64,000 bases of DNA from Geosiphon pyriformis uo1. Its lineage: Eukaryota > Fungi > Glomeromycota. Positions within the stretch are counted from its first letter, which is position 1, and each line of letters begins with the position of its first letter. This document shows positions 8,016 to 31,416 of the stretch, one piece after another. Position numbers and translations under genes: made by a program. The notes beneath the pieces are model-generated. The model did no database searches and was not told the origin of the DNA. It saw only the letters and a list, made by a program, of their open reading frames with translations. The stretch lies in the NCBI GenBank assembly GCA_016748015.1, contig JAAOMT010000603.1, positions 153,008 through 217,007 on the forward strand, in the 5' to 3' direction.

Positions 8016-8079
8016 TATTGTGTTTGTTTATGAGGGAGTTACTAATAATTAAGTTGGTTTAGTTTGAGAGATTGTACTG

Positions 8080-10762
8080 TCACTGAATGGTAAGTCTAGA
8101 GAGAGCATCAGCATTTTGATAATTAGCTCCTTTGTAGTGTTGAATATCATAGTCGAATTCATCCAGATGAAGTATCCAGCGAGTTATCTGTTTATGTTTC
8201 AGATTCTTTTTATTGTGCAGCTAAACCAAGACTTGATGATCTGTTACTACCAGGAATTTGGCACCAAGAAGATATTGGTTCCAATAGCTAGTAGCCCAGA
8301 CTACTGTTAAACATTCTTGTTCAGTTACTGAATAGTTCTTTTCTGCTGATGTGAGAGATTTACTGGCATATGCTATAGCATGTTTTCTGCCATTTTCATC
8401 TTTTTGTAAGAGTACAGCACCAAGTTTATAACCAGATGCATCAGTGTGAAGGAAAAAAGGTTGGTCCAAATCAGGTTGCTTAAGGATTGGTTCAGTAACA
8501 AGTTTTTCCTTCAGGATTTCAAAGGCTTTTTGTTGATGTGTGCTCCAGTAGTAATTAACATTTTTTCTGAGTAGCTGGTTGAGAAAAGGCAATTTTGGAA
8601 AAATTTTTGATGAATTTGTGATAGTAAGAAGCCAAACTAAGGAAAAAGTGTAGTTCAGAAACATTTATTGGTTGTCTAATGTTTTGAACTTTTTCAATTT
8701 TGGCTGGGTCAGGGAAGATTCCATCTTTTGTAATAAGATGACCAAGGAACTAAGTGGATTGGCATCCAAAGAAAGATTTAATTGGGTTGATCTTAAGACC
8801 AGCATTTCTGAGCAGATCAAAAATCTTTTGCAAATGTTTGAGGTGTTTATTCCAGATTTTTGAATATACCATTATGTCATCCAAGTAAACCAGAACAAAG
8901 TTTTTTTTTACTGATTCAAACACTTTATCCATTAGGCGTTAAAAGGTGAGAGGAACATTGATGAGACCAAAAGACATGACTGTGAATTTATAGGTGCCAT
9001 ACTTAGTAATGAAAGCAGTTTTCTTTCTGCTTTCTGGATCCATCTTTACTTGCCAGAATCCAGCAGTTAAATCAATGGTTGAGAAAAAAGCAGCACTATT
9101 AAATTTATCTAGCATTGCATCAATTTTGGGAAGTGGGTACATGTCTCTTATAGTAATGGCATTTAATTGGCAGTAGTCAACACAAAAGCATAGAGTTCCA
9201 TCTTTCTTGAATACTACTACAACTGGAAAAGCCCATTCACTCTTGGTTTCTTGTATGAATCCAAGATCTTTCATCCTGTTTATCTCTTTCTTGATAAACT
9301 CATTATTACGACAATTGGATTGATAAGGCTTCAAATGTATAGAGCAAGTTTCTTTGGTTGTGATGATGTGTTGTATCACATAGATTTGTTCAGGGGTATC
9401 ACCTTCTTTTGAGATAACTGGGCTGTTTCTAGCCAATAGGTTTTTAATATCTACTTTTTTTTCTTCTGGAGAAGATTCTCTTTGTTCTACAACAAGTGAT
9501 TGAATCTCAGGTGGTTCATTTTCAAAGAACTTCTGTACTTTTTTTATTTCTTCTTTGGGTATTAAACTGATTGGTTTCCAATCTTTGTAATAGATTAAGC
9601 AAAATTTGCATTCATTACTGGGAGAATACAAAAATTTATTGCACCAGCATCTGGCACAAGAGCCATGTCACCAATAACTATATTTGGCTTTCTTGTCAGG
9701 CTTTTGGTCAAAGATTTTTCTAAGGATATTATAATAGGGCCAGCAGATCAGCTTGTCATTTACCATGATTTCTTTTTTATCTGCTTTGACATTATCTAAT
9801 GGTTTGCCATTGCTGGTAAAGATAGTGTAGGCAAGTTTAGCAGTTTCTTCTTGTTCATCTTCTTTATCACTTTCTTCATCATCTGACTCATCTGATTGCT
9901 CTTCTTCTTGGTTTTGTTTGGGTATTGGAGGAGTTGTCCAATGGTGATACTTAACCACAATGGGTTTCTTACCATATTTGATGGTCAGTTTACAGAGTTT
10001 ATAATCAAACAAGGCTTTTGTTTTCTTGAGCCATTCATTGCCAACTATTATGGTGTATTCTTTTGCTTCAGATACTTCTATGTTAGTTTCAATACTGATG
10101 TCATTGATTCAGACAAGAACAGCTTTGGCTATACCTAGATCTTTTTTCTTGTTACCATGTATATTGGTCATCAGTCATGTGGATGGTTCATCAATCTTTC
10201 TGCCAATTGTTTCTAAGAAGTGTTTGGCAATGATGCTAATAGATGATCTACTGTCCAGAATTAGATCAATGAAGTAACCAGCCACTTGGGCCTTACAAAT
10301 GAGAGGGGTAACATTGTTGTTGTTAGCAAGTCTAGCTTGGCATGGGCACTTGTTGGTTTTTAGTGTTTTTTTCTTAGGAATCAAAGATTTGCGAAGGTCT
10401 TTTCTGAATTTGGGATGAGTCTTTAACTGGCCAAAGATAATGTGTGCAGAAGTTTCCATGAGATCTTTGACAATGGAATAAGAACCAGATTTTTGCATTA
10501 TTTCTGGGGGTTTCAACTTTGGAGAATTCTTGAATACTTTAGTCTTTGGTGGCTCATTGTTGTTAGCAGTTGAAGTGGATGGTTTGTTTGGATCCAGAAT
10601 GAAATCAACCTTGGTCTTCTTCTTCTTCTTGGTTGATTCTGAAGTATTGATTGCTAGTTCATCCATGTTATGGTCATCATTAATTAAGTTAAAAGCATAA
10701 AAGGAGTTTTTTTCTAGTTGGTTTGCACTCTTACCCTTTGGAGGTATGCCTACTAGTTTAAA
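8080..10762 (-). pseudogene. pol: E1 pol: aspartic protease - short Cys motif - RT - RNase H, ending at TGA 8080-8082
   Basis: LILDS(R/G)S protease, CARCWC..CKFC, FCVDY, YLDD ~8880, TDASG..YAS, NADALSRLTIQ*. Confidence 0.93.
10753..10762 (-). promoter_or_regulatory. E1 gag-pol -1 ribosomal frameshift slippery site U_UUA_AAC followed by UAG
   Basis: Gag frame reads TCT TTA AAC TAG. The -1 frame (TTT AAA CTA GTA GGC...) is open into the protease-containing ORF 10175-10666. Confidence 0.75.
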
Positions 10763-12303
10763 GACTGATAAACAGTAGCTTCAACTAAGAGATTCTCTCC
10801 AAAGAAATTAATGTTGGCATGATTAGGTCTTTGATTGAGAATATTAATATTGTTGAGTCTGTTATTCTGGGTGTTATTATTTCTAGGAGCTGGAAAGGGC
10901 AATAGAGGATTGTTACAGTCTCTGAAAAAGTGTTCAGTTAGTTCACAGCAATAATACACAGGTAGACCATGATTTTGCTGTCTTTGATATGGTGGTTGCT
11001 GGAGTTGATTAAAATAGGGTTCAAATCTGGGTCTTTGGGGTTGTTGATTCTCTTTGACAGCTTGGGCTAAAGATTTCAGTAATTGGGCAAGATTAGCTGT
11101 AAGTCTATCTATTAACTGTTTATTTGGGTCTTGAGTTTGGGCAGCAAAAGAGACAGCAGCTATTTGTGGAGCTAGAGTCATGACAGAAGCAGAAGCAAAA
11201 ACTGGAAGTGTGGATCCCAAATGCATCCTTTGGTTATCTTCAATTCTTTGTGCCAGTTCAATATCCATGTCCATTGTTGGGTTGTCTTTTAAAGCCAAGA
11301 GAGGCCAAAGAGCATACGATAAATCAGTTTTTAATTCTTTTGTGAAGAAATAAATCTTTTATCCTTCTGTCCAGTTTCTCCCAGAGTCTACACGTTTGAT
11401 TAGCTTTCTGATAGCTTTGGCATATTCAGTCACTACTTCTCTAGGGCCTTGGGTTCTTCTTTCCAATTCCATGTGCCATTTGGATATTAATATTGGGGTT
11501 CTGAACTTGGTCTCAAACCGGGTGATAAAAGAGGTATTTTTTTCTCCAGCATTGTTTGGTGTCTATTTGATTATTCTGTGTTGAGCATTGGCATCTGTTT
11601 CTTATGAGAACCAGGTAGCAGAAGAGCCTTGAAGGTAGCCACCAACAATTTGGAACTTGTATTCTTTATCATACTGGTTGGCTGTAACAGTTCTCTCAAA
11701 ATCATCTAACCATTCAATTGGATCTTGTGCATCACCTCTAAATAGTAGTAGTGGGATATTGTTTCTTCTTCCTAGAGCAGTTTGTATACTTTGGAGGGCA
11801 GCCAGAATGTTTGCTTGTATGGGGTCATTAGCCATTAGTTCAGGGATAACTGTTTGTATAGATGAGTCTGATTCACTTGATAAAAGATCAAAAACAGGAG
11901 CAGTTTGGTAGCTTTCTTCTTCTGTTTCAAAAGGAGTTTCAGTTGCTTAATGGGCAGCAATCCAAATGTGGATTTGATGATTCAGATATTCGAAATCAGG
12001 GGGCTGTTGTTCAAAGATTGCAGAATATAAGAGCTGATTGATACTGTTGTTTCTTTCTTTAAAGTCATTTTTAAAATAAGCTTGGTCAAAGTAATAGGTT
12101 GTATAAGCTGTATAGGTTTCAACTGAATGCTCATTCAGGAACCAGTTCCAAAAGTCTTGGAATTGTCTGCTGGATTGTTTTTCAATGGGGAAACAAATCA
12201 AGCAGGAGGACAAAAGATTGAGTTCAATAAAGTCTAGATCATTTTTGTTGTGTGCTTTAAAGTGTTTTTCTGATTATTGTGGCAGGTATAAATAATTACC
12301 CAT
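10753..12303 (-). pseudogene. gag: E1 gag with ~156-aa N-terminal extension (MGNYL...), capsid domain from ATG 11835, CCHC knuckle
   Basis: 12303, 12213, 11835 and 11298 share one frame; FRGDAQDPIEWLDDFE capsid motif; degenerate Cx2Cx4Hx4C (~10920-10960). Confidence 0.88.
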
Positions 12304-12331
12304 ACAATAGGAAACAAAGTGGATTTTGACA

Positions 12332-12349
12332 ACCTTACAAGGAGCACCA
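12332..12349 (-). promoter_or_regulatory. E1 primer-binding site TGGTGCTCCTTGTAAGG
   Basis: TGG-start sequence 6 nt inside the 5' LTR; nearly identical to the E2 PBS. Confidence 0.85.
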
Positions 12350-12355
12350 CTTTTA

Positions 12356-13103
12356 TGTTACAGGTTAGAGTAACAAGCTAACGGATAGCAAAGGAGAACA
12401 AGATTGTAGGGTGATAAAAATAATCAAAGGGAATTCAACTTTAAAGAGTGAATTGAATGAGTATAGATTCAATGTGTAAGATTAGTCTCATAAAATATTT
12501 CAGTTGCTATGCTTTTCAAAGTAACCGGGGAATCTGAAGGTAGAAGGATAGTCCATACTGTCAACAAATAATCACACTTGGTATAATTCTATGCTTCACG
12601 TCAGTGCTTTTAGAATTCAATATCAAGTATCAGATGTGCTCTTCAGTCACATTTTATTCAATAATCTCCAAATGTTGCAATTACATGTTTTAGGAAAAGA
12701 CAAATAAACACCAACAAGTAATTTTTTATCCCAAAGATGTTCGAATACTTGAAGGTAGGGAAAGGAAAATTAGCAATAAGAGAATAATTGAGATGAAAGT
12801 TATTATTTTATTTATTTAATTCCTTGATTTTTAACATAATTTTCTACAGCTAAGAGATTTATTGCTTATATAGTTGTCAAAAGTGGTCAATGACCAAGTC
12901 AATGATTAGGTCAATGATCAGATTAATGATCAGATCAACAATTAGGTCATTGATCAGATCAATAATCAGGTTAATGATCAGGTCAACAGTCAGGTTATTG
13001 ATCAGGTCAATGATCACTATCTAAAAATAGGGTGGCTAATTATATGACATCAGTGGCTAATACATGTGATAACTAATAAAACCTATGAGTTTCAACCATA
13101 ACA
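12356..13103 (-). repeat. E1 5' LTR (748 bp) with U3 12-bp tandem array (12886-13016) and TATA (TATATAAG ~12866-12873)
   Basis: Direct repeat of 5360-6035; 11 copies of GGTCAATGATCA. Confidence 0.96.
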
Positions 13104-14564
13104 ATATTTTTGTTCATAAGTATGGATTCAGTAGGCTCTTTTGCTGGTAGATTGGTATCTATTTTAGCTAAGTTAAGAACCCAGTCTAATATTAAAACCA
13201 AATGGTTGGTGGATGCTCACTCACATGATATTTCATACAAGAAACCCAAAAAATTTACTGTCATTAGCAATATAGTTGAGACATCTGCTGGCTTTCTATT
13301 TTTTGTAAATATGATTATTGACAGCAACAAGTCTTTAAGATTCTGAAACAGCAAAGTAAACAGTAAGACAAGCAGTATTAGCAGTATATTAGACCTGGAA
13401 AACATGAAAGATACAATTGTAGAAAAAACCAGCTATGCAGATTCAAATGTCTCAGAAGTTAATAATACTATAGACAATACTACACCCAAGAAAACTCATA
13501 TCAAGACATTATGTTTTAGGCAACAAACCAAAAAATATTTCTTTCAATAATTTAAATAAAGACAATAATAATATTTTAACACTTTTAGTTCTTAAGTTTT
13601 CTGGTGCTAAGTATTTGTTGACTGTCAAGTTACATGTTTTAGATAGACATGATTTTAAGCTAGTTAAATCTTTTGTATTGGATATTGAGTTATATGCTGT
13701 GCCAGACAAGACTAATAGTAATAAATTGATTGCAGTTAAAAAAATTTTCTATTAGATTGATGGTTTTGGAGGAGCCTCTACTTTCTCAAAATTTCCAGAA
13801 ATCATTAAATTATCTTTTATATCAGAATTTAGTTTAAATAAGACAGAAGATTTGGCTGTTAATAAGAAAATTTTGGTTAATAATGATATAAAAAAAGTAA
13901 ACAACTGCTTGAATTGAGAAGTGATTATCAAAAAAATCTCAGTTGATCTTTTTAAATTGGCTGTAAAATCAGTTTTTTCCAAATTTGGCAAAATTATTTT
14001 AATTAAAATGCAACTAATTGGTCTTTGGCAAAAGGTTTTGATCAAATTTAAGTTAGCAGATATTGCCAGTTTGATTGCTTCCAAATAGTCAGTTCTTATA
14101 AAAAAGAATTCAGTGTGTATGGCAAAAGCTGTTAAAAATAAACAAACATGAGTATTTAAGAATCAACATTAAATTTTGTTGTATACTTTGTTAGTTGAAA
14201 CTACTGCTCACAATTTTTCTAATCTGTTGGCATTCTATGATGGAAAAACCTGTGTCATTGGCCATAATCTGGTTATATATGTTTATAATAGAAGTGTAGT
14301 TATTTGTTTTGATAATAAAAAATTGAAAAATAGTGCTGTTGGTTCTTTGCCAGTTTTTAAAGGTGTAAGTTTACATTGGGCTGGTTTTTTTCTGGCCCAT
14401 TGTGCCAAATGTTAACAATTTGATTATGTTTCTAATAAGTGTTTAACTGATAGGAACTTGAGTGGCCATGAAAAAAAAACTTTCAGTTCTTAGGATTATG
14501 TTTACTTGGCAAACATATATAAAAAAAAGCAGGCTTCAGTGATCCATCCAGTTTTTTTTAGTAA

Positions 14565-15571
14565 TGTTACCAGTAGAATTTTAGCTATTAATTAGCATGA
14601 AATTATTCTTATAATTCCTATTATTAATTAATATGTTAATATCAATTCAAATTATCACTTATTATTTAATCAATTTATCACATATCATGATTCAATTAAT
14701 AATCCAATTAGTACAACAGAAAGTAAGATGATCAAATTACACAATACTCTGAACTTTGTAACATTCTAAAATTCGCCGAAATTTACAGAAATTTGCTGAA
14801 ATTTATATGAAATTCGCCGAAATTTATAGAAATTTGCCAAAATTATGAATAGTTCATCCAAATTAATCAATAGTTCAGTGAAATAACTTGTAGTTTATCA
14901 AAATGTATCTTTAATTTGCTGAAATTTGAGCAAAGAGGAAAAGTGCAAGTTCATAGATTAGTACTACAACAAGTTGTATAAAAAAAAGCTTTTTTCTTCA
15001 AGAAAATATATCTTGCTTTAGATTTATTACTTAGAATCATTCCTACACACACAAAAAGAAATAAATATCAAATAATTCGAAAAAAAAACCAAATTCTTTA
15101 ATTATTGTACTTGAAACATCCCCAAAACCCAACTAACATTTTGAAATTAATTAGCTACCAATTTCAGTAAACTGTTAGTGACTTCAGGCCTGGATAAAAA
15201 ACGTTTCTCTTGACAAAATTCTATTTCTTTTACATTTTTTTTATTTTCTTGTATTTTCTTATTACAATCATTAGGATAGCCTACAGACAAAATTCCTGTA
15301 GAAGAGTTGACTTTTACAGCAAAGTAACTACACATTTTAGTGAGCTTCTAGATAAGCAATTCTTGGAAAAGAGTTGACATTTACTACAACATAACTACAT
15401 AAAGTAACTGGCACAAAATTAGCCATTCTACTTATAAGCCCAGCAGTTCAAATTATAGGAGATAATTTGAAGATAAATTCAGTTACTGAAAGTCCAACTA
15501 CTTCTAGAAAACGTGAATTTACAATAAACAAACATTAACAACATTTAAGAAAAAAGACCAAAAACCTCCAG
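14565..15571 (+). repeat. E3 5' LTR (terminal 5 bp displaced to 25699-25703 by E2)
   Basis: Direct repeat of 33636-34643; ~21-bp GAAATTCGCCGAAATTTATAT array at 14768-14925; TATAAAA ~14976. Confidence 0.95.
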
Positions 15572-16459
15572 TGTTACAGGTGATTATTTCTGCTGTTGAA
15601 TTAAATAACAATCTGTAACTTGGCGCTCAAAAGCTACTTCCATTGAGGAGGTTCTGCAAGTGTTGTATCTGAAGGTTTTGATGAAGTCCTTTGTATAATA
15701 GACAGAGATTCAATAGTGTTGATAGTAGATGTATTTTTTCAAGAGTTTCCCAATTTCTTTCTTAGCGTGGTGGCTGGATTTAGTCTGGTAGTCATGCCCT
15801 TCTGGTAAGCTATCCGATAATATATAAAATTCTACCCTTATTTCTGGGTCTTTTACCAGGCTATCCTTGACATCAATAACTCAGTGCTTAATCTTTTAAT
15901 CAATTAGTATACAACAACAAAATCAAAAAAAAAATAAAATAAAATAAAGAAAATAAAAATAAAGAAAATAGAAAAAATAAGCCAAGGCAATTTGGTACAT
16001 TAGTATTTCGTCAATAGCCATGATCAAGAGCTATTGTTCCAGTGTGGTTAAGTATCAATTACTATCAACATGAAGTGTTGATAGTAGAGAGTGGGTTGAG
16101 ATATGGAATAATTATTTATTTTAATGATTGGAACTGGAATGTTGCTTAGATTAAATCTAAACTAGGAGGTCTGTCTTTTTAGCTTCTAATCCTACTGCTA
16201 TATATACATAATTGAGATTCCTCAATTTCTCAATTCTTTGTGACAGGAATTCTGGGATTCCTGGAATCTTGCGATTCCTGATGAGAAGAATCCTGGAATT
16301 CTGGAATCTTGCAATTTCTCGTCAGGGAATTCTGAAATTTCTGGAATCCTGCAATTCCTCTAAGAGGAATTCTGGAATTCCACCTTTACTACATCTACCT
16401 CTGATTGGCTAATATCTACTGACTAATAATACTATATTTCCTATATTCTACGAGTAACA
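15572..16459 (-). repeat. E2 3' LTR (888 bp) with GGAATTC-rich ~40-bp tandem array (16246-16382)
   Basis: Direct repeat of 24847-25694; CCAAT (~16404) and TATATATA (~16199-16206) on the minus strand. Confidence 0.96.
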
Positions 16460-16474
16460 TTATTCCCTCCTTTT
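16460..16474 (-). promoter_or_regulatory. E2 polypurine tract
   Basis: AAAAGGAGGGAATAA directly before the 3' LTR. Confidence 0.85.
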
Positions 16475-17159
16475 AATATTGAGTTCCATTGAAATCCAAC
16501 TCATTTAATTCTCCCTCTTGAAGTATTTTCTGAATTTCCTTTTCAAGAATTACTTGTGTTATTTGAGTTTGTAATTCCTCAAATTGAGCATTGGTGATTT
16601 TTCCCAATTAATTACTGGTAACCGTATCCATTGCTTTATTGAGTAGGATTTTTGGTCTATCTTGAAATGCTGTATGTATTCAGTATATAGCTCGGGCCTG
16701 TGTAGATAAATTGTTCTTTCTCACAAAATGTTTTAATTGTTGTAGTATTCTTTTGTCAAATAATTGCTTTGTTTTATCCGTATATAAATTCTGAATATTT
16801 ATGTGTTGTCCCAAGTAAAAATAACAATAGTTTTGTGGAAATTGTTGTATCCACCAATTCCAAGTTTTTCTGGTAAGTTCTTGGTGTAATCTGACTATTT
16901 GTTGTTTTTTTATGGCCAATTTTATCTTAGTTATGATCTTGTCGACCACGTTTCTAAGTCTTTTCTGTGCTTTGTTTTGTGGTATTTTTGCCGTATTTTT
17001 GTAACAAATGATTTGTTGATTGATGGTAATTTCCATCTCCTGGTGTTGGATTAATTGAAAAATTTGTTGGGCTAGTGAATGGATATTGTCCATAATCTCC
17101 ATTTTTTTGCTCTTTTCTATCGCGTCAACTATGTTCTTATATATTCTTTTGTCAATCAA
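16473..17159 (-). pseudogene. E2 ORF3, accessory protein of unknown function (first ATG ~17102; two internal stops)
   Basis: The 159-aa ORF continues in frame past a TGA (likely from CGA) to the TAA at the PPT; YFYLGQ...ARAIY.IH..F...LGKITNAQFEEL pattern. Confidence 0.75.
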
Positions 17160-18538
17160 TTAGACGTGTTGTTGTCAATGATAATGATTGGTTCCAGAAT
17201 TCGTGAAATCTCATCTAGTTGGACTAGTATTCTCTGTACTCCTAATTGTGGGATATTACTGGTGGATGATAATGCTATATGATGGTATGGTTTCAGTCGA
17301 TTTTCATGTGCTGCTTTGGTCAAGATTTTGTCATTCAATCTTAATTTATAAGCTTTATTTCCTAGAATTTCTTCTATGTAAAATGGTCCGTCCCATTTGG
17401 GGTCAAATTTTCCACTCCATTGTTTTTCCGCTTTGGTACAATGTAGTAGTACTTTGTCTTCAATTCTGAATTCAACTGGTTTATCTGGTAGTTGGTTATT
17501 ATGTCTTTTTTTTTGTTTCTCTTGTGACTTTTGTATGTTATTGGCTGCTTTTCATTATTTGTTTTCTAATGTTTTCATTAAATCATATGTTTTTCTCAAC
17601 AATGTATTTTTGAAATTCTCTTCTGTTATTGGTTTGGTTGGGTATGTGCTGACTTCTATTTCCACTGGTAGTGTTGCTGTTCTACTATATACTAATTCAA
17701 ATGGTGTTGCTTGTGTAGTATCTTGCTTCATTGTCCGATAAGCAAATAGTACTGATGGTATCAACAAATCTCAATCATTCTGGTTTTCTTGGCTGAATTT
17801 AGCTATTGCTTCACACAATGTTTTGTTGAATCTTTTGACTAATCCATTGGTTTGTGGATGGTATGGTAATAATAGTGGTCTCTTAATTTCGAATCTTTGG
17901 CTCAATTCTGTTAATGTTTTATTCACAAAATGAGTTTCTTGGTCTGATAATAATTCTTTTGGACATTCATGTCGACAGATCAAATCCTAATGAACAAATT
18001 CAGCAATGGATTCTGCATTCACTCTTTGAATTGCTTTCACCTCTGGCCATTTAGTGAGATAATCCATGGCTACTACTATGTACCTGTTTCCTCCGCTGGT
18101 AATTGTTAATGGTTTGACTAGATTAATTCCAACACAGTCAAATGGTTGTTCTACTTTGATTGGTCTTAATGGTTCACTGGGTTTTGTACTTCCTCTTCGC
18201 TGACAAGCATCACAATTTTGAACATATTGGATGATGTCTGGATACATTGATGGCCAATAATATCTTTTTCTGGTTCTTTCCATGGTTGCTTCTTTGTAAA
18301 AATGTCCTGCTGTTGGATTTGAGTGCATGTTGAATAATATTGTCTCTTTTTCTGGTTCTGTAACTACTCTGGTTGGTTGATTTGGATTTTTTCTGTTTTT
18401 CTGATAAAGTATATTTTGGTGAGTGATAAAATATTTTGATTGTTGTTTGATACTCTTTTGTTCTGTTTGAGATAAATTCTCCTTAAACTGTTGAGTGTTT
18501 ATATAATGTTGCAGTTGTTGATATTTTTGTATGTTCAT
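17156..18538 (-). pseudogene. int: E2 integrase, separate ORF with own ATG (MNIQKYQQLQHY...)
   Basis: MHSNPTAGHF..CDAC HHCC; DYLTKWPE; SDQ..HF; QTNGLV.RFN; WDGPFY; ends LEPIIII. Confidence 0.95.
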
Positions 18539-18600
18539 CTTTTGTTACATTTTTCATTGGTATTGTTCTGGTTTTGTTATATTTTTGTGTTAAAATGTTC

Positions 18601-21600
18601 TTAGATTTGTCTCATTTGTGACAAACCGTCAGCATTTCTGTTGTCTTTTCCTTTTTTGTAATGTATAATATAATTGTATGATGTAAGTGCCATTTTTCAT
18701 CTTGACTGTTTTCCATCTCCAAATTTTTGTTTTTGGAGTGATGTTAATCCCTTGTGATCTGTGTATACTTCAAACTTCTGGCTCAAGTATTTTTTTTATT
18801 TTATGACTGCCCAGTATATTGCTAAGTGTTCTTGTTCTGATGTTCCATAGTTCTTTTTGGCTGGTATTAAATCTCTGCTGGCATATGCTACTGGATGTTC
18901 TCTGCTATCTAGTCCTCTCTGAGATAATACTGCTTCCAATGCTTGGCCAGATGTATTGGTGGTGATAATGAATGGTTTGCTGTAATCTGGATAAATCAGT
19001 ACTGGAGCTTGAATGAGCTTTTTTTTCAAAATGTCAAAAGCTTCTTGTTGACTTTCTGTCCATTCATATTTGGTATTCTTGGTTTGCAGTTGGTTGAGTG
19101 GCTGTGCTATCTTGGAAAAGTTCTTGATAAAACATCAATAATAGCTGGCAAATCCCAAGAATGATTTCAGTTCTGTCATATTGGTTGGCACTAGAAAGTT
19201 CTTTACTATCTCTATTTTCTCTGGATCTGTTTTGATGCTGTCTTTGCTGACTATGTGTCCCAAGAATTTTAGCTCTGTCTTGCCAAAGAAGCACTTTGTT
19301 GCATTTAACTTTAGCCCTGCTTTTCTTAGTTTTTCAAACACTTGTTGAAGATAATAAAGATGATCATCAAATGTTTTTGAGAATACGTTGGTGTTGTCCA
19401 AGTATACAACTACTAATTTCCACAATAAGCCAGTATAGATGATTTCCATTAGCTATTGGAAAGTGGCTGGTGCATTGGTTAAACCAAATGGCATTACTTC
19501 AAATTCAAAATTCTCTTCTCTCGTGGTAAATGCTATCTTCTCTTTGTCGGCTGGATCCATGGCTACTTGCCAGTAACCACTATCTAAGTCTAACGTTGAG
19601 AACTATTTGTTTCCACCAAAAGCATTGAATAATTTCTGTATTCGTGGAGTTGGATAGCTGTCTCCACAAATTACACTATTGAGTTTTCTGTAGTCCACAC
19701 AAAATCAGATCTTTCCATTCTTTTTACAGACGAGTACCACTGGTGATGACCATAGGCTCATTGATGGCTGAATTAGCCCATTGTCAAGCATTCGGTTTAT
19801 CTCTTGACGAATAATCTTGTGGCTAGCTGGTGGCACTCTGTATGCTCTTTGTTTAATTGGCATTGCATTTCCAGTCTTGATCTGATGCTGGATAATGTCA
19901 GTTTGGCCAAACTCATTTTTGCTGGCAAAGATGTCATTGAACTGGTTGAGCAATATCTTGAGTTGCATACGTTGGAGTGGATCTAAGTTTCCCATGTTCA
20001 TTTGTTCCAATTGTTCTGATTGAAGCAAATAACATTTACTTCATCCATATATTGTTTGTGATGTGATATTGACATATCCACAAAGTTGTAGAAAGTCTGG
20101 AATGGAGTTTGGTGGTTGATCCTCTATTTTAGTGTTTAAGTATCCAATAATGGTTCCTTCTGGTACATTGATGACATTGCCAGTGTTGTTGTAGATAGAA
20201 ATTTTTATACAGCTATAGCTTTTGGCTGGTATGTGGAGATTGATTAGCCCAATCTCTCTGGATTTACAAAGGTTTGTTACAGCTTCAAAAATCTGTTCTT
20301 GCTCTTTTTTCTTCCTTTCTATTGCTAGCATGTACTGGCTATATGGTGGAATGAAAATAGCTTGACTGGTTGAGATAATTTCTCCTTGGCCAACAATTTC
20401 TTTCTCTGCCATATTAACTAGTACATCTATTCTATCCATTGATCTAAATCCCTGTATTCCTCTCACTGTTATTCCTAATTTCTCTTTCTTTCCTACTGAT
20501 ACTAACTGAGCTACTTTAACCAGAGGCAGGAATATTGTCTGTGCTATCTTTTCATTGGGCTCTATTATATAGGCCTTTTCTGAGTCATTTTGTAGCATAG
20601 CAATAATATTTCCTACATATTCTGCGTCAATTATTCCTCCTCTTATATTAATTTTTCTTTTTGCTAAACTACTCCTAGATGCTAATTGAACCATTGTTGT
20701 TGCCGGAATTTCTAGTGCTACTTTTAGATCAATGCAGATGTGTGAATGTGGTTCTAATTTGATGGTCTCTTTTCCTGGATATCTTAGATCAAACTCTGCA
20801 TCAGTATTATGCACACATTCTGGCATAATACCTTCCCCATTGTCACTATACCATTTCAATTCTTGTTCCTTGGAGAGATCTGGTAGTGTAATATATTGTT
20901 CATAGTTTAACTCAGAGTTTGAATCTGAGTTTGAATCATCTTTGTTGTCATTGCCATTTTGAACGGAACTGGAACTAGTGTTTTTGTCATTGTTGTCGGA
21001 GTCTGGATTGCATTTATTAGTGATTCTGATTCCGATACACAGCTGCTGATTGGTTTTTCTTCTTTAAGGATTGTGTAGATCATGCATGGTGATGGATTGT
21101 AAATGAGATCACAATTATCACAATATTCAAAGTCACTGGAAATTAAACAATAATAATACAGTCTTGATTTAACTGTGCTAGCCATTGTTCTTGCTCTTCT
21201 CTAGTGGGTGCCAAGTTTTGGTAGTGTTCATGGAACTCTTCTGGTTTCAGAAAATTTATGACTGGCTCTGCATCTCAGTCAAGCTTAATGGGTTCTGGTG
21301 GGTTGTTTTTAATTGTTCTGATTTCTTCTGGCAATGCATCTTCAATTTTGGCAATTGCCATCTGCCATAGTTTATTGTCATTGTATGGACAACTGTCCAA
21401 TCACTGTACAGCTCTTCTCCAAGTGGCTTCTATGGGTGTTTCTTTCTCGACCCAGTTACTGATGAGGATTGTATATTGGCAGGACATGTCACATGTTCCT
21501 CTTCTCCCTGGAATGTTGTTTCACATTCCTTCATTAAGGAGAGTTTCTCTATAGGCTATATATGGTGTATTATCCCATTTTCCCACTCGCTTTAGTCTTC

Positions 21601-24600
21601 CAAAATGTTTGACATGGCATGCATGGCAATAAAACTTGGTTGCCATCTGATATTCTTCATCATTGCCACAGCATGCACCCATTGATGACAATTTCTTGCC
21701 ACAATCAACGCATATTAGTTTGGGTCGGCAATAAGTTGATAATTGTTGTTGACTGTAGGTGTATGGGATATAAGTGTTGTTGGCTTGAGTGTTTTCTTTC
21801 TCTCTCTCTTTCTCTTTTCCCTTTTCTTTTTTTCACTCCCAACTCGATGGTTCTTCCTGTTTATTGTCAGTCCAGGTTAAATTGTCTGTTTTCCAGATCA
21901 GTTCCTCTTTTTGCTTTCCCTTAGAGTTGTCGTTTCACGAGAGTATTGGTGGTAGTTCATTGTGGTTGGCATCGGCCCAGAAGACTTGGTAAGCTTCTCA
22001 GGTAGGTTTCTCTTTCTCCTCCTCCAGTTCGATCAATAGTTTCTCTCTTGGAGGAGTCTTGAAATGGCTACACGTGGCCGGTACACATATGTGTTAGCCC
22101 TAATATGTTAGCTGGAGTTCCTGAGTGTTCCAGTCTAGTGTCGCATTGACTTTGGATAGCCAGTCATTACCAACAAGAGCTTGGTATTGAGTGGCTTCCA
22201 TTACTAGAACTTTAATGGGAGTCACAATGCCATTGACTTCGAAAGAGAAGTCGTCAATTTTGCTGATTGGAGTTTTGGTCGCTCTATCAGCTATGATGAT
22301 TCTGGCACTGACAGCTCGATCAACTCGGCGACCTAATTGATCCATGAGTTGTCATGTGATGATGCTGCCTGCTAAACCACTGTCAAGGATCAATTTGATG
22401 GATTGTCCCTCGACTTTGGCATCAGTGTACATTGCAGTGACTGGTTTGGCTTCAAAAGTGGCTCCACTAAATAATGGCATTGTAGTTGTTTCCTCGAATT
22501 TGAATGGGAATATAGTAGCCAAAAACTTGTCTTCAGTGATGGTAGCAGGTAGAATATTACTGGTGAGTAGTTGTTTTTGGGCAAATGTTAGTTTATTGGT
22601 TAAGGCATCTTCTGAGGTGACCAAGAAACTTAAATAGTTCTGGGGTTGACCGGCACCTGAATTCCACTGGCGTAATCCAGATGGTTGCTGTAAAGAACTG
22701 GGGATCAGTTGATAGACTACTATTGCCAATTTCCAGCTCTGTTGAGTCATTCTTGGTCTTTGGGTTCTGTTGGGTGGTAAGCTTTGAAGTAGTGTTTGAA
22801 TTTGTTGGGGCTGATAGATTATTTGTGGCTGCGGTTATTGATAAATTACTTGTGGCTGCAGTTGATAGATTGGAGCTTGATACACTGGAGATTGATAAAC
22901 TGATGACTGTATCACTAGTAGGTAAATGGGTTGGTTTTAATTTGGGTACTGATTCGGAGTTTGAAACTGGCAATCGGGGTTTTGATATTGATTTCCCAAT
23001 TATTGGTTATTTAAATACTGGCGACAATCAATTTGGATATGTTCTTGTTTACCACAATAGTGGCAAATACATGTTTCCTGTTGCCATTGTTAATTGGTCA
23101 ATGAAGATAGACATGATTGATTTTGGCCACAATTAGAGTTTCCTTGATTATTGCGTCATTGTGGAGGCTGATAAATGGCATGATTGTCAGCTAAGTATCC
23201 TTCCAATCTCTTATTAATTGATTCACTAAACTTCTCCAATTTGGAATCCAATTCAGATGATCCGTTCATTACTAGATTAACAGCTTGGGCATGGTTAGCC
23301 TCTGACTTAGCAGATTCAAAATCTCTGGCACATGTGACTGCATCTTGAAGGGTGCCTGGATGCAATGGATGTACATATTGCAAGATGCTGCTGTGCAGGC
23401 CACAGATAAACTGATTGAGTATCTGTGGGGCTGTAAAATAGTTGGCGTCAATTGCTTGAATTTGGCGCAGGTTTCAATAGAAGCATCCCAGGTAAGTGGT
23501 GACCACTTCAGTTTCTTCTTGTTTCATGGTGGTGAATGTATTGACTAGGTGATTAATGCTGTTATTGTTGCTGAAGTATCTTAGGAATTTTGCTTTGAAG
23601 GCATTGAAATCTTGCAGTTTATTAACCAAGCTCTGATATCATGAATCAGCAGTATCCTTGAGAAAGTAAGAAATGGCTTGCATGGTTCAGGCGTCATTTC
23701 ATCTGTTGGCTGTGATGGTTTTTTTGACATCATTCAGCCATACTTGAGTATCATCCTCTTCGCCAGTAAAGTTGTCAAGTTTTGCAATTAGTGTGTAGGC
23801 CATTGGATCTAAGTTAGGTGGTTGTGGTGGCTGTTGAAGCAGTTGTTATTGTACTGGTTGTTGGGGTGGTAGTTGAAGTGGCTGTTGTATGGGTTTGGCT
23901 ATGGAATTAATTGGCAGTTGATTGATAATAATTACCAGAGGTAAGTTTTGCTGATTAATTAGTTCGGAGTTTGAATTGTTCTGCCTTTGATGATTCAGAG
24001 TTTTGATTTCCGAATTTTCTAGATTTAGATTTTGCTGAGTTTGAAAATTCGGGGTTTCAACTTCTGGGTTTTCAGTGATTGGGTGCTGGTAAGTAAATTC
24101 CTAATCCTCTGATTCTTCTTCCTCTTTTTCTGATTCTGCTGCTTCCCACGGATCAGAGATTCTGAAATCTGGTGGAGGTGGTGGTGATCGAAGTTCTGAT
24201 GGGGTTGATGATTGTGAATTAAATCTCTCAAAGTATTTGCCGTATGGTCTTAATAATTCTGTTTTTCTTTGTCTACTTTGGAATGGGAATCATCCAAATG
24301 CTGATGTTGCAGTTGATAGGAATGTGTCCATTGATAATATGTTAATGGTGCTTTCAGGTGTATAGTGGTAAGATGGGTTGCTTGGGAATTCAATTCTGTT
24401 TTTCTTCCAAATAGGTGGCTGTATTTTTCTGGGTGTTACTGCTGGTGTTTGTAATTTTCCCTTGCTTTTACTAGTGTATGTAATTGGATATTTTTGTTAA
24501 GTATGGTGTTCAATTTCTTTGTTGATCTCAGTGATGATGGATGCAAAATTATGATTTGTTGGCAAGTTGGTGTTTTAAATTAACTCCCTATAGAAAGTTT

Positions 24601-24784
24601 CTCTTGCTGATTTAGTATTCACTGGTGTTCCTAATAAAGAGGAAATCTTTTCATTGACATAGAAATTAAAGGCTGATTTGGCAGATATATGATTGTGGTT
24701 TAATCCCAAGTATTGACAATAATGTTGAAATAAAGATTTTGTGAATCCTAAATGGTTTGCTCCTATATTTTCTAATTCTGCCAC
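18601..24784 (-). pseudogene. gag-pol: E2 gag-pol polyprotein: N-terminal extension (GTG 24784), capsid (ATG 23803), CCHC, Q/P/Y-rich linker, PR, Cys-rich module, dUTPase, RT, RNase H; stop TAA 18601-18603
   Basis: LDNFTGEED capsid; CHYCGKQEHIQIDC; LILDSG; FCVDYRKLN; YLDNT; NADGLSQMRQI*. Gag and PR are in the same frame. Confidence 0.93.
20430..20859 (-). pseudogene. dut: dUTPase domain within E2 pol
   Basis: All five trimeric dUTPase motifs are recognisable: DAEFDL, RSSLA, GGIIDAEYVGNI, KIAQ, RGIQGFRS. Confidence 0.92.
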
Positions 24785-24827
24785 TTTTGGATGGTGTTTG
24801 TTGGTGCTGGTTCTCTGTAAGATTATA

Positions 24828-24844
24828 CCTCACAGGGAGCACCA
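24828..24844 (-). promoter_or_regulatory. E2 primer-binding site TGGTGCTCCCTGTGAGG
   Basis: 2 nt downstream of the 5' LTR; complementary to a tRNA ending ...GAGCACCA (Ile-UAU or elongator-Met-like acceptor stem; identity unconfirmed). Confidence 0.88.
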
Positions 24845-24846
24845 AA

Positions 24847-25694
24847 TGTTACAGGTGATTATTTCTGCTGTTGAATTAAATAACAACCCGTAACTTGGTG
24901 CTCAAAAGCTACTTCCGTTAAGGAGGTTTTGCAAGTGTTGTATCTGAAGGTTTTGATGGAGTCCTTTGTATAATAGACAGAGATTCAATAGTGTCGATAG
25001 TAAATGTATTTTTTCAAGAGTTTCTCAATTTTTTTCTTAGCATAGTGGCTGAATTTAGTCTGGCAGTCATGCCTTTCTGGTAAGCTATCCAATAATATAT
25101 AAAATTCTACTCTTATTTCTGGGTCTTTTACCAGGCTATCCTTGATGTCAATAACTCAGTGCTTAATCTTTTAATCAATTAGTATACAACAACAAAATCA
25201 AAAAAGAAAGAAAATAAAATAAAGAAAATAAAAATAAAGAAAATAGAAAAAATAAGCCAAGGCAATTTGGTATGTTAGTATCTCGTCAATAGCCATGATC
25301 AAGAGCTATTGTTTCAGCATGGTTAAGTATCAATTACTATCAACATGAAGTGTTGATAGTAGAGAGTAGATTGAGATATGGAATAATTATTTATTTTGAT
25401 GATTGGAACTGGAATGTTGCTTAGATTAAATCTAAACTGAGAGGTCTGTCTTTTCAGCTTCTAATCCTACTGCTATATATACATAATTGAGATTCCTCAA
25501 TTTCTCAATTCTTTGTGACAGGAATTCTGGAATTCCTGGAATCCTGCAATTCCTGATGAGAGGAATCCTGGAATTCTGGAATCTTGCAATTCCTTGTCAG
25601 GGAATTCTGGAATTCCACCTTTATTACATCTACCTCTGATTGGCTAATATCTACTGACTAATAATACTATATTTTCTATATTCTACAAGTAACA
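24847..25694 (-). repeat. E2 5' LTR (848 bp)
   Basis: Direct repeat of 15572-16459 with one fewer array unit. Confidence 0.96.
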
Positions 25695-25705
25695 CTGGTA
25701 ATATT

Positions 25706-25722
25706 TGGTGCTCTCCCACGGA
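25706..25722 (+). promoter_or_regulatory. E3 primer-binding site TGGTGCTCTCCCACGGA
   Basis: TGG start 2 nt after the displaced LTR end TAATA (decayed TAACA). Confidence 0.82.
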
Positions 25723-25748
25723 AATAACACAGTAACAACAAATTCAAA

Positions 25749-28700
25749 GTGGCAACCACACCAGACACAGCAACTCTAGAGTATTATCAGTCAATTTACA
25801 CCCACTGCAAACAAAGATTTAACATCCCAAACAGAATTAAAGTTGTCAAGAAATCAGTATACCAATACATTAAAAACCATATCAACATTTATCTTTTTGA
25901 AAACTACAACATTTCAGAAGTGAGAAGCAATTTCTACAACAATTTAGTGCACTATTCACAATTGAAAACAGAAGACCTGAACAGTGAAACACTTGCTACC
26001 TACTTCTAAGAACTTAATTTTAATATTATTGAGTATTGTGAAAAAAAATACCCAGTACAGTCTAAATACTCTTTTAACTTTGAATCAGAAACAAAGACAA
26101 GCAACAAAGGCAAACAAAAAGTGAAACAATACTCAAGAACCACTCCAAACACTTCAATACTACCAAAAACAACTGCCAAACACTTGCAAACACCTGAACA
26201 AGGAACCAGTATCAAATTACCACTTTCTATTACACCATTTCCAATTTCACTTGTTCAACCACAAACACCAAGTTCACTACTTAACTGTTTTTTTAGACCA
26301 GAAGATTTTCAGTCATTTAGAAATTCGACTTAACAACAAGAACCAATATCAACAAGTGCCAATATCATTGATTACTTACAGGAAAACAAAAGTAACCATT
26401 CAGAAAGCTTGGAAAGTAAAGAAACTGAATCAGAACCAGAAAAAATTACAGGAAACGAAAAAAAAATGACAACTGCTTACATTGCAAAAATTCCAGAATT
26501 CACTGGTGAAGACAATGATACCAGTCCTTAAGAATGACTTGACAAAGTTCAAAAAGCAGAAGATGCAAATGGTTGGATTGCAGTAAGAATGCTCAAACCA
26601 ATTCCCTACTTTCTTCAAAGAACAGCAGGAGAATGATTTGAAAATTTAGAAGAACCATTTGAAAACTGGCAAGCATTCAAAGATGCTTTCTTACAACAAC
26701 ACCTCTATTACTCTCTGCAATTGCTTTTACAATATCAAACAAAAAACATCTAAAACTGTTATGACCTATCTTGGAAGATTCAACAAACTTCTCAGACGAA
26801 TTTGACAATTGGAAACCAATGACTACTATTCTGATGCTTAAATTTTAGATCAGTTTATAGCAGAATTAAAAGACAAACTGATTAAAAAAGTCTGTCCACA
26901 TGCTCCAGCAGACTTAGCAACTGCCATTAAACATGCAAAGAGCTATGAAATGGCAATGAAAGAAGCAAATCACACCAAGCTTGTAAACCTTGCAATTAGA
27001 AAAACCAGCTTAGCAGCTGAAGAAAAGATAGACCAACTCACAAAAAAGGTTGAAAGCTACTTCACAAACCAACAACAACAGCAACAACAACCACAAAGAT
27101 ATCAACCCTCACAATAATACAACCAAAACAATTTTGGATTACCATCCAACAACCAATCTCAAAATTGTCATTATTGTGGAATTCCAGAACACTGGAAACG
27201 AGATTGTAAGAAATTACAAAGAGACCAACAAAACAGGAGTAATCAACATTACTCTTCATCATAACAATCTTATTACCAATCTTCACCACCAACCTATTAT
27301 TCACCAAGACCACAAAATCAAAACAGTTATTATCCACTAGTTCTACAACCAATGCAGCAACAATATCAGCAATCCTTACCAATTCAGCCATATCAGACAC
27401 CACCAACTCAACAATATCAAGTACCAGCAAGAAGATTGGTTCAACATAACCAATTCACACCCCAAAATCAATTTCAGAGTAACAACAACAGAATCAATCC
27501 AAATAACCAGTTGGTTCTCTGAAATTTTGGTCAGCAAAGACCCAATCACTATCACACTCAACCCAGTTATCTTACAATATCAGAGAAATCGGATTTTCAA
27601 CAACCTGCACTTTCTGAAGATAAAGTTACAACACCTAGATCAAACTCTTCCAATAACACTATTCTACCAGCTCAAATTGCCCAAAATACCAACCTTTCAG
27701 ATATATTCCCATTCGAATTTGAAGCAAATGAATCACCATTCTTGCTTAGTAATACAGCAGCTAATGAACAAAGAGCTATTATTGCTATGTATACTGAAAC
27801 TACAGTAGAAAGAAAATCCATCTGACTAATTCTAAACAGTAGATCAGCTGGAAGTATTATCACCTACCAGTTAATGCAACAGCTTCAAAGAACTGTTGAC
27901 AGACCAGCCCAAACTGTAATTGTTACAACAGATGGTATGAAAAAGACACCAGTAGGAGAAATCAACAATTTTCTATTCATCATTGATAAAATCACCATTC
28001 CAGTCAAAGTTCTAGTCATGGATACACCCCAATACCAAGCTTTGGTCGGAAATGATTGGCTTTTTAAGGCCAATGCAAACTTGGACTGAGAAACTCAGGA
28101 ATTAAAAATCTCATACCAAGAACAATACACCATAGTACCTGCTACTTGTGATACTTTTAACAAACAATCAAAAAAAGCCACAGTATTTGAATTTGAAAAG
28201 AAGAAAGAAATGCCACTTACTAAAACCTACATGGCTCTTGGATCAACATCCAATTGGACTGAAGAAACAGAACAAGAGATTTTTGAAGAATCAAGAGGAT
28301 GGAAGAAAGTTAGATATTCTACACCAAAACCACAGAAACAACCACCCTATATTCCACTCAAATGCAAAGATTGCAACAAGAAACTTTCATCAATGGAAGC
28401 ATGTATTTCTTCAGAAGAGGAATATGAAACTTGTACCTGTTACTTTTGCAAAGCATGCCATAGAGAACAATTTAGATCTTCAAAAAGAAGTAGAAAATGG
28501 GACAATACACCTTGCCTTACATGTGGAGATATGTTACCAGAAGAATGCAACTGGATTGATATTGCAATGAAAGGAGGAATATATAATCAAACCTGTTAAT
28601 ATGTTCTATTAATTTCGGAAAAAGTCAGAAGAGGAACACCATTTGATGCAGCATACAACAGTGCTCTCAATAAACTTTATCACTACTCTCATGATGCTGA

Positions 28701-31359
28701 AATGATTTTTGACTTAGCAACAGCATTGATCAATGAAACCACCCAAGAAGATGTCTACCAAATGAAAGAAGCTAAATACATTGAGTATACTATGGAATTA
28801 GCTGGATTTGATTATGAAGATAAAGTAGAAACCTACCACCAAATTGCAAGCCACACATATCTGACTTAAGAAGCTCAAATTCAACAATTAAAGCAAATGA
28901 ACATTCAATTATGTAAAAAATGCATCATGCCTTGTGATGACAAATAGTGTCCAGAATGCTATGCTCTTAGCATTCCTCTGCCAAAGGAAAATGATGAAAA
29001 TAAAATCGAATTTGGAGTATCTGAACTGGTAGAAGAACTACCAACTACTTCCATCTATCTTCTTGAAAAGCAACTACCTCTACAATTTAAATATTTCAAC
29101 AACCATGGCCAAGGAATCAAACCAGAAAAAGCACACGAAATTGATGCTAGATATGACCTAAAATACCCAGGAAAAGATACTTTGGTTCTCCAACCAAAGT
29201 TTTTGACAAAAATCAATCTCAAAATTGCTCTTGAAATTCCACCTAAAGCAATGGTTCAAATTGCATTCAGATTATTATTGGCAAGCAAAGGAATCAATGT
29301 TAAAAAAAGAGTTATAGATGCAGAATATACTGGAGACATTACCATCATGTTACAAAATGAAACAGACAAACCATTCAGGATTGAACATGCTGAGAAAATT
29401 GCCCAAGCAATTTACCTACCTCTAATCAACATTTCGAGGTTACAATCAGTTAAAAACAGAGAACAATTGGGAAAAAGTAAAAGAAAAACTCAAGGTTTTG
29501 GTTCAATTGAACGATTTTACAGTTCCAGTAAACATAGCTTTCAATACACAGAATAAATCTTACCAGATTCTTCAACTTTCTCAACCAATTACCATTCATC
29601 TTTTGGTAAACATCACGAAATTTACACTTGCTCAAAACCCACCACTATTCAACAAATCTTTGAATCCAATAAACAAATCTGTTTGAAGCATGAAATCTCA
29701 ATCCCAAACATTTATATTCCCAAAGGAATGAAAAAATTTCAAGTTACATTCTATAACCCCAATAATTACCTCATTGTCTTATTGAACAAACTAGAAATTG
29801 AAATCATACACAGTAACATTTTTCAAGATGAAAATCCTTAAATTGTCTCTAATTTTATCGAAATTATAAGACATACACTACTTCCAAATCCAAACATCAT
29901 TTCTACTACTGAAAACTACCACCTTTTGGAAGAAAAACTCTCTTGAATCAACATGGGTCCCTTGGAACCCCAACAACAAAGACAATTGAAACAATTGATA
30001 GCTGAATTCGCAGATATATTTGCAAAAGACAACAATGATCTTGAAAAAACGGATATTGTTAAACACCAAATCCATACAAGAAATGTTTCACCAAAACGAC
30101 AACAAACCTATCAAGTTCCACCTGCTAGCCACCAATTTATTAGAGAAGAGATCCAAAGAATGCTCAATAACGGATTGATTCAACTATTAAGAAGTCCATG
30201 AGCCTCACCAATAGTTCTTGTCAAAAAGAAAAACGGAAAAATCAGATTCTGTGTTGATTATTGACAATTGAATAGTATTACAATTGGAGATGCCTACTCT
30301 CTTCCAAAAATTGATAACATATTAAATGCTTTAAAAAAAGCCAAGTTCTTTTCAACTTTAGACTTGGAAAGTGAATACTGGCAAGTCAAAATGGATCCAA
30401 AAGATAGACCCAAAACAGCATTCACCACTCAAGGAGAAAACTATAAGTTCAATGTTATGCCTTTTGGACTCTGCAATGCACCAGCAATATTCCAACGACT
30501 CATGGATGTTGTATATGAAAGACTCTTGTGGCAGTTAGTGGTTGTCTATCTTGATGACACTGATGTATACTTACCAAGCTTTGAGGCTCATCTTATCTAC
30601 CTACAAGAAGTTTTTCAACGATTATGAAAAGCAGGATTGAAGTTAAATATTGAAAAATGTTACTTTGGAAAAACAAGCTTAATCTTCCTTGAACACATTG
30701 TTAGCAAAAATAGAGTTAAACCAAATTCTGGAACAATCAGTACTGTCAAAAACTTTCAAACTCTCAGAAATACCACAGAACTATGAGGATTTGTAGGATT
30801 AGCCTTTTACTATCGAAAATTTATAAAAAGATTCTCAGAAATTGTCAAACCACTCAATTATCTTACCAACAAAAACGTACCATACAAATGGACTGAAGAA
30901 CAACAAAAAGCTTTTGAAACCCTCAAAACAAAATTGACAACAGCCCCAGTTCTTGCTTACCCAGACTTCAACAAACAGTTCCAATTAGTCACTGATGCTT
31001 CACACATAACATTTGGTGCCATTCTATCACATTTGGATGAAAATGGCCAGAAACAAGTTATTGTCTATGCCAGTAAAACACTTAAGCCAACAGAACTCAA
31101 ATATGGCTCAACTGAATTAGAAGCTGCTGCCATCATTTGGGCTCTCAAACACTTTCAACAATACCTAAAGAATAGAAAAAAATTTGACATAATAACTGAC
31201 AATATTGGCCTTAAATGGCTCAATAAAAAGAAAACTGAACAAAATACCAAACAGTCTCAATGGAATGACTTCCTAGCAGACTACAGATATATTGTACACC
31301 ACAAACCAAGAAAACTACATACTAATGTTGATAGCCTCTCAAGAATGAGACAAGATTAA
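25749..31359 (+). pseudogene. gag-pol: E3 gag-pol polyprotein: N-terminal extension (GTG 25749), capsid (ATG 26466), CCHC, Q/N/P-rich linker, PR, Cys-rich module, dUTPase, RT, RNase H; stop TAA 31357-31359
   Basis: IPEFTGED; CHYCGIPEHWKRDC at 27166; LILNSRSAG (decayed DSG); YLDDT ~30547; TDAS..YAS; NVDSLSRMRQD*. Confidence 0.93.
29090..29515 (+). pseudogene. dut: dUTPase domain within E3 pol
   Basis: DARYDL, RLLLA (decayed RSSLA), VIDAEYTGDI, KIAQ, RKTQGFGS; aligns with the E2 dUTPase. Confidence 0.9.
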
Positions 31360-31416
31360 TACCAACAACAATTCCACCACAACTTATCAACCTACCAACA
31401 AAATAACCAAACAAAA

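Follow-up and report, generated by a model that had tools for sequence, protein, structure and literature searches.

Integrase encoded apart from Pol in a Ty3/Gypsy-derived lineage of arbuscular mycorrhizal fungi

In Ty3/Gypsy elements and retroviruses, the integrase (IN) is normally part of the Pol polyprotein, and its amount, packaging, and activation are coupled to Gag-Pol. Can such an element encode its IN elsewhere? The question is raised by a stretch of 64,000 nt from Geosiphon pyriformis uo1 (JAAOMT010000603.1, positions 153,008-217,007, forward strand; hereafter the window), which holds three long terminal repeat (LTR) elements, E1, E2, and E3, whose pol frame ends after RNase H (RH) and whose IN begins at a new ATG. 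An earlier note on the window had proposed that this lineage encodes IN apart from Pol. The comparisons below, made at the level of sequence, confirm that the split is real and lineage-wide, and it is apparently undescribed. IN is very probably a separate cistron, and we put the probability that it is reached mainly by termination-reinitiation at about 0.5.

The three junctions in the window share one plan, and the coordinates given earlier were reproduced exactly: the pol frame runs on for 4 codons past the RH motif before its stop, 64, 62, or 57 nt of spacer follow, and IN opens with M-D/N-x3-Y-x2-L. In E1 (minus strand), the reverse transcriptase (RT)-RH frame ends at the TGA at 8080-8082 (NADALSR-LTIQ), the spacer at 8016-8079 has no ATG and one G in its last 60 nt, and the stand-alone IN open reading frame (ORF) at 6754-8015 (ATG at 8015, start MDLDNYFAL) is decayed by stops and a frameshift. 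In E2, also on the minus strand, the TAA at 18601-18603 (NADGLSQ-MRQI) is followed by an A-rich spacer at 18539-18600 and by an IN ORF of 460 codons at 17156-18538 (ATG at 18538, start MNIQKYQQL), which has 4 internal stops and carries H2C2, core, and SH3 domains. The length and position of the E2 spacer were given correctly in the earlier note, which overlooked two extra ATGs within it (+43 and +50). In E3 (plus strand), RT-RH occupies 29989-31359 (NVDSLSR-MRQD) and ends with the TAA at 31357-31359; the spacer at 31360-31416 has no G at all, hence no ATG, AG, or GT, and IN occupies 31417-32802 (ATG at 31417, start MDPRNYSNL, 461 codons, 5 internal stops). The phases of 1, 2, and 0 for E1, E2, and E3 bear out the statement that IN is out of frame in the first two and in frame in the third. 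Pfam matches upstream of the break were RT and RH in E2 and E3 (E1 was checked for RT only), and integrase domains were found downstream of it in all three.

These copies are decayed enough to mislead. The two LTRs of each element are 90-94% identical, and the RT-RH or IN regions of E2 and E3 carry 4-6 internal stops each, as decayed copies do; because of this decay, the window alone leaves room for chance stops. Nor are the three elements, presented earlier as divergent, fully independent: E2 and E3 are sister families in both the IN and RT trees, which leaves nearer two independent witnesses.

We therefore turned to relatives. Among 80 metagenome loci (numbered with an L), 10 fall in the RT clade of the window elements and have RH and IN together on one contig, and all 10 are split, several with unbroken ORFs; a search of viral contigs gave only 2 weak loci. 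Open, in-frame RH-IN junctions, which the earlier note had named as a refuting result, were not found within the clade. The locus spacers measure -8, 30, 62, 63, 74, 89, 110, 163, 365, and 727 nt. When the 10 loci are taken together with E1-E3, the 13 clade junctions use TAA 7 times, TAG 4 times, and TGA 2 times, and show phases 0, 1, and 2 three, four, and six times, the split being kept while spacer length and phase vary. The clearest intact case is L010, where an unbroken frame of 1479 aa (capsid, zinc knuckle, protease, RT, and RH) is followed by a stop, 62 nt, and an IN of 418 aa. Outside the clade, 16 of the 18 loci in which both parts could be aligned run in frame from RH into IN. In 14 of these 16 fused loci, 63-81 nt separate the RH motif from the column in which the clade has its initiating Met; the RH-to-Met distance in E1-E3 is 72-79 nt. 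Since its place and length match the linker of the fused relatives, the spacer is most simply the former RH-IN linker. By the measure of substitution, IN is conserved after the split: pN was 0.19-0.37 and pS 0.57-0.87 in 7 IN pairs (uncorrected values).

Protein searches revealed the same layout. With the E2 IN as query (stops read as X), 910 proteins of 254-809 aa were returned. The best 120 were 390-453 aa long, and 103 of them start with M-[DEN] at the start position of E1-E3; of the other 17, 13 are partial or are shorter calls whose start lies downstream. A Met within 2 residues of this start column was present in only 4 of 64 fused relatives. Named relatives of IN come from Rhizophagus irregularis, for which many near-identical copies of 419-430 aa are on record, and from Entrophospora; related RT or gene-model matches come from Dentiscutata and Cetraspora. 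Judged from these records, the lineage is one that occurs in arbuscular mycorrhizal fungi, with relatives also in soil samples. Of the 120 best longer homologs, only 3 show 40% identity or more, namely one Ginger-like protein (40%) and two Cetraspora gene models (47% and 44%). Missing from both models are the end of RH and the N-terminus of IN, and from one of them also the RT core; they look like automatic joins. In the reciprocal RT search, 100 of 120 proteins had a recognizable RH end motif (20 gave no match to it); 54 of the 100 stop within 10 residues after the motif and 34 more within 40, giving 88 of 100.

Phylogenetic trees place these sequences together. In the first RT tree, from which 6 near-duplicate and 8 short RT rows had been dropped, 13 split loci and 26 RT proteins picked for ending after RH formed one group with no fused member (SH-aLRT 93); another protein ending after RH, P0358, was placed with animal-type rows. 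After L030 and other long rows had been dropped, a careful LG+G4 tree (44 rows) gave 94/94 for 25 split-type rows. In the IN tree, a core of 28 stand-alone rows (91) lies inside a 45-row set with Athila/Tat-like fused rows, and five Ginger-like rows fall apart from that set (SH-aLRT 95). In both trees the clade's neighbors are plant rows, proteins whose names assign them to Brassica, Tanacetum, Mucuna, and Zingiber; the label Athila/Tat for these rows is our reading of their motifs. The RT of the clade groups among fused Gypsy-type rows, in trees built without named reference elements or a non-Gypsy outgroup. A single origin of the split is likely on these trees. Several observations weigh against the overall reading. 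In a quick tree under the C20 mixture model, the split-type rows formed two groups plus a singleton, and their branching relative to the plant rows was unresolved; the split locus L030 lies outside the RT clade, and L014 and L024 lie outside the core of the IN tree. The RT search left out proteins of more than 798 aa, and ORFs may be truncated by contig ends. Finally, one contig of the run aligned to E3 (run X1) joins 31355 to 31437, the letters between being unknown, and may represent a divergent spacer or a rare in-frame deletion.

Could the layout nevertheless be an accident of dead copies, or an IN gene acquired from elsewhere? Premature stops are indeed frequent in the window, and Ginger1 transposases resemble Athila/Tat-type integrases according to the portion of PMC2836005 available to us, so capture of a Ginger1-type DNA transposase gene deserves mention. 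The intact relatives are split in the same way, however, and on that ground we rejected a decay artefact. E3 has 6 internal stops in the interval 30400-32800, and related copies from the same organism (run X1) differ from it at 4 of them within the 40 difference rows available out of 334; these 40 include no indel row at the junction and no row on the RH-terminal stop or the IN ATG. Capture is contradicted by the agreement between the RH-to-Met distance and the fused linker and by the grouping of the clade integrases with Athila/Tat-like rows, apart from the Ginger-like ones. Decay and capture together are thus extremely unlikely. IN could also be kept within Pol if recoding, or an intron spanning the stop, restored the polyprotein; in Ogre elements, splicing of an intron removes a stop and rejoins the frames. 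E3 and L002, which are in frame with a single stop, would permit recoding, and L010 and L020, which have long Pol tails, offer consensus-like in-frame donor/acceptor pairs. For the clade as a whole the conventional reading is largely refuted by the frames themselves. As the earlier note had argued from fewer cases, readthrough cannot explain most of the junctions, 11 of the 13 being out of frame or having a second stop. A frameshift would have no overlap to occur in at 10 of the 13, where the IN frame opens only past the Pol stop. The stops and their 3' contexts are not common to the junctions, and recoding leaves the conserved Met unexplained. A rejoining intron, named earlier as an alternative, is ruled out by sequence at 8 of the 13 junctions (E1-E3 and 5 of the 10 loci), which allow no in-frame intron of at least 40 nt that keeps the RH aspartate. 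We consider a restored polyprotein very unlikely, and because recoding and a rejoining intron fail at most junctions, IN most likely starts at its own Met.

How would ribosomes reach that Met? We examined 19 junctions, a set that drops L043 and L056 (no ATG at the mapped place); L030 is not one of the 13 clade junctions. A purine occupies position -3 of the IN ATG in 17 of the 19. The 12 spacers shorter than 200 nt, which include those of L006 and L011 (contigs that hold the Pol tail, not RH), contain 3 ATGs, compared with 11.4 expected from a mononucleotide shuffle (p 0.001) and 8.7 from a dinucleotide shuffle (p 0.003). Upstream of the stop, the distance back to the previous ATG has a median of 34 nt against a background of 35 nt. 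The IN ATG overlaps the Pol stop in L021, and an ATGA overlap joins IN to the following ORF (ORF3) in L009; 8 of the 9 other IN-ORF3 spacers are free of ATG. At 9 of the 13 clade junctions, the IN AUG either overlaps the stop or is the first AUG after it, the exceptions being E2, L008, L016, and L020. The depletion of ATG in short spacers and the overlapping junctions favor termination-reinitiation. Ribosomes would terminate Pol at its stop and make IN by restarting at the AUG that comes next, either by scanning across an AUG-free, weakly structured spacer or by restarting on an overlapping stop/start, and the same step may be repeated for ORF3. The break itself would go back to one ancient fission at the RH-IN linker. 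Once separated from Gag-Pol, IN might bind RNA, Gag, RT, or ORF3 and so be brought to the particle or the cDNA; alternatively, it might meet the cDNA after its release.

Against termination-reinitiation stand the long spacers of L008 (365 nt, 7 ATGs) and L020 (727 nt, 12 ATGs), which have ATGs at background density and are ATG-free only in their last 82 and 110 nt, a pattern that fits a separate mRNA better. Upstream ATGs also occur in E2 and L016, and the IN-ORF3 spacer of L004 has 6. ATG depletion is not a clean discriminator between routes, ordinary 5' leaders being likewise ATG-poor. The part of PMC5972666 available describes restart after a long ORF as very rare, and Pol itself lies behind a stop or frame change in several loci; for both reasons the yield of IN by this route would be low. 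Translation of IN from a dedicated subgenomic mRNA, made either by splicing from the LTR leader or by initiation at an internal promoter in the manner of env-position ORFs, is a tentative possibility that we take seriously. It would free IN levels from Pol recoding and would account for the ATG-free ends of the L008 and L020 spacers, the latter of which also contains a TATA-like run. In the 120 nt upstream of the ATG, a branch point plus YAG is present at 42% of the 19 junctions and in 21-23% of controls, a borderline enrichment at the 95th percentile of shuffles. Precedents appear in the accessible text of two papers, in that Athila, the named group closest to the clade, expresses its downstream ORF from a spliced subgenomic RNA (PMC7197481) and Tca2 has a minor junction promoter (PMC2194720). 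Yet the junctions share no acceptor; a branch-plus-YAG pair followed by no further ATG in the spacer is present in only 6 of the 19, and E2, E3, L002, and L003 have no pair. A separate mRNA leaves unexplained the stop/start overlaps of L021 and L009 and the ATG-free zones that reach back to the stop over spacers of 30-190 nt, and ORF3 would need yet another mRNA. Internal ribosome entry on an unstructured A/C-rich spacer, with no need of upstream translation, is suggested by E1, E2, E3, and L024, whose last 60 nt are nearly unfolded (minimum free energy 0 to -0.9) and whose G content is in the lowest 5%. The earlier description of a G-poor, A/C-rich spacer therefore holds for E1-E3 but fails as a general feature: the other 15 of 19 junctions are not G-poor, the spacers of L002 and L003 are U-rich, some junctions fold to -8 to -13 kcal/mol, and L021 has no spacer. 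This variation in composition weakens the proposed entry on a CAA-rich leader; a universal leader of this kind was rejected, and internal entry is improbable. Termination-reinitiation remains our preferred main route, and the route may differ among sub-lineages.

The cistron downstream of IN bears on the same question. E1-E3 all have an ORF after IN, as do most clade loci whose contigs extend far enough downstream. Ten locus copies of ORF3 align, and their profile finds 493 representatives at 50% clustering, mostly of about 140 aa. In E3 the decayed ORF3 at 32990-33601 (plus strand) has a weak match to this profile at 33359-33565 (iE 0.003), and the ORFs at the same position in E1 (6005-6661, minus strand) and E2 (16473-17102, minus strand, 53 nt past the IN stop) have no match to the profile. 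The predicted model of ORF3 is all-helical (pLDDT 95.7). No Pfam family and no PDB sequence match were found (best E 0.27), and Foldseek gave no match at E<=0.001 in PDB or BFVD, with a best VIA Z of 5.1; this lack of a match does not make the fold a new one. An atlas lead naming ORF3 as a closterovirus coat (0.94, 150 shared features) was not accepted. We speculate that ORF3 acts as a transactivator or an IN adaptor. The fuller scheme, a polycistronic LTR element in which Gag-Pol, IN, and ORF3 are translated serially from genomic RNA with the helical ORF3 as reinitiation transactivator or IN-particle adaptor, is rather doubtful.

The remaining features of the three elements are those of LTR retrotransposons. 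E1 spans 5360-13103 on the minus strand (3' LTR 5360-6035, 5' LTR 12356-13103), with a 4-bp target duplication, ATAT. E2 spans 15572-25694, also on the minus strand, with LTRs at 15572-16459 and 24847-25694. E3 spans 14565-34648 on the plus strand and is broken up by E2, its 5' LTR lying at 14565-15571 plus 25699-25703 and its 3' LTR at 33636-34648. E2 is nested in reverse within E3 about 5 nt short of the end of the E3 5' LTR (15568-15572 / 25694-25703), adjoining the E3 primer-binding site (PBS). The LTR pairs all have TG...CA ends; the 4-bp target duplications around the elements are exact in E1 and mutated in E2 and E3. A putative PBS of E3 (TGGTGCTC...) lies at 25704-25722 on the plus strand; by sequence likeness, PBS-like stretches starting with TGG and purine-rich runs resembling a polypurine tract (PPT) are present in E1, E2, and E3. 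Open segments with a dUTPase domain (PF00692) occur at 20044-21063 in E2 (minus strand, E 2.9e-18) and at 28948-29553 in E3 (plus strand, E 1.7e-15), in both cases between protease and RT and behind a Cys-rich region. No Pfam match to gag was obtained among the window fragments tested. The E1 frame changes at about 10780 (minus strand), near the gag end, a possible frameshift site, and L014 shows short -1 overlaps with slippery-looking A/T runs at its gag end (2898-2919), which may be another. Elsewhere in the window, a solo copy about 79-82% like the E1 LTR lies at 35883-36533 in opposite orientation. The regions 36500-49600, 54300-64000, and 1-1100 hold decayed related repeats, probably non-LTR retroelements, among which the ORF at 47993-48874 carries an RNase H domain; 47283-49622 and 61658-63998 are an inverted pair (87%).

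Several loci have peculiarities of their own. Between Pol and IN, the 365-nt spacer of L008 (2490-2854) contains a 67-codon ORF and several short ORFs. An acidic Pol tail of 315-590 aa with Cys/His clusters follows RH in L010 (3490-4441) and L020 (4936-6705) and is also seen in L006 (2-544) and L011 (1-348); in L010 and L020 it has no Pfam match. In three divergent loci of one subclade, protease and RT are parted by one in-frame TGA followed by CTA (L008:870-875, L020:3358-3363, L021:1585-1590). UGA-CUA is a leaky-stop context, and readthrough is likely there from the sequence; in L021 another in-frame TGA follows the zinc knuckle. A further ORF downstream of ORF3 or IN near the contig end (L003:3226-3781, L010:6804-7436, L024:3880-4378) may represent a fourth cistron or a second copy of the gag start, carried by the 3' LTR. 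L030 has a split RH/IN junction and an RT on a long branch outside the clade, and may reflect an independent fission.

If a large and diverse lineage does without the link between Gag-Pol and IN, then that link is dispensable. These natural elements make two things testable: recruitment of IN in trans, and restart of fungal ribosomes after a long ORF. Should polycistronic reading assisted by ORF3 be true, a eukaryotic reverse-transcribing element would, by design, supply its IN in trans. There is also a consequence for annotation, as pipelines that expect one pol frame will score intact split elements as broken, and the integrases of such elements are annotated as free-standing genes in mycorrhizal genomes.

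We found no published description of a Gypsy lineage with IN outside pol, although repeat databases (Repbase, GyDB, Dfam) and subscription journals were beyond reach and may hold one; the Rhizopus element Gypsy-1-I_RO, named in the available part of PMC2836005, is a possible example of such an entry. The accessible portions of PMC3248453, PMC2774666, PMC6317226, PMC5911963, PMC6431247, and bioRxiv 2021.03.30.436303 and 2026.05.21.726589 contain no split-integrase layout. The comparison with known systems starts from the canonical Ty3/Gypsy elements, the Metaviridae, with which the clade shares two LTRs, PBS-like and PPT-like sequences, the order protease-RT-RH-IN, an integrase of H2C2, core, and SH3 domains, and, in the intact relative L010, a gag with Ty3_capsid, Retrotrans_gag, and zf-CCHC. 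The ICTV profile of the Metaviridae includes integrase in pol (PMC7879559), whereas all 13 clade junctions have a stop and a separate IN ATG, with a non-env ORF3 after IN. On this comparison of sequences, the split clade is a Ty3/Gypsy-derived variant and not a canonical member of Metaviridae. Tat elements, a related group, also have a Pol-type enzyme domain outside pol, an additional RNase H in a separate ORF that is accessory, rare, and upstream, but their integrase stays in pol, as far as the accessible text of PMC10508981 goes. Ginger1 DNA transposons encode a Gypsy-like integrase that stands alone, is about 400 aa long, and has an N-terminal motif in common with Athila/Tat; they differ, in the part of PMC2836005 at hand, in having terminal inverted repeats, no gag or RT, and C-terminal protease domains, whereas E1-E3 have direct LTRs and RT-RH.

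For the junction itself, the closest likenesses lie among elements that restart translation. Caulimoviruses are not known to have an integrase, and no likeness of ORF3 to their transactivator TAV was found in the Pfam, PDB/BFVD Foldseek, or VIA comparisons. Cauliflower mosaic virus (CaMV) does resemble the split elements in its serial long ORFs, tightly spaced or overlapping, and its TAV-driven restart tolerates from a few to 700 nt (PMC5972666, in the part available). Coupling of stop and restart is also described for a fungus in the accessible text on hypovirus CHV1 (PMC2699510). In LINE-1 (63-nt spacer) and SART1 (overlap), the downstream enzyme ORF is proposed to be reached by termination-reinitiation, according to the same portion of PMC5972666. 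These are non-LTR elements that are divided between ORF1 and the RT ORF rather than between RH and IN, and that face no capsid packaging problem. By this analogy, the lineage likely works at its RH/IN junction like the bicistronic non-LTR elements.

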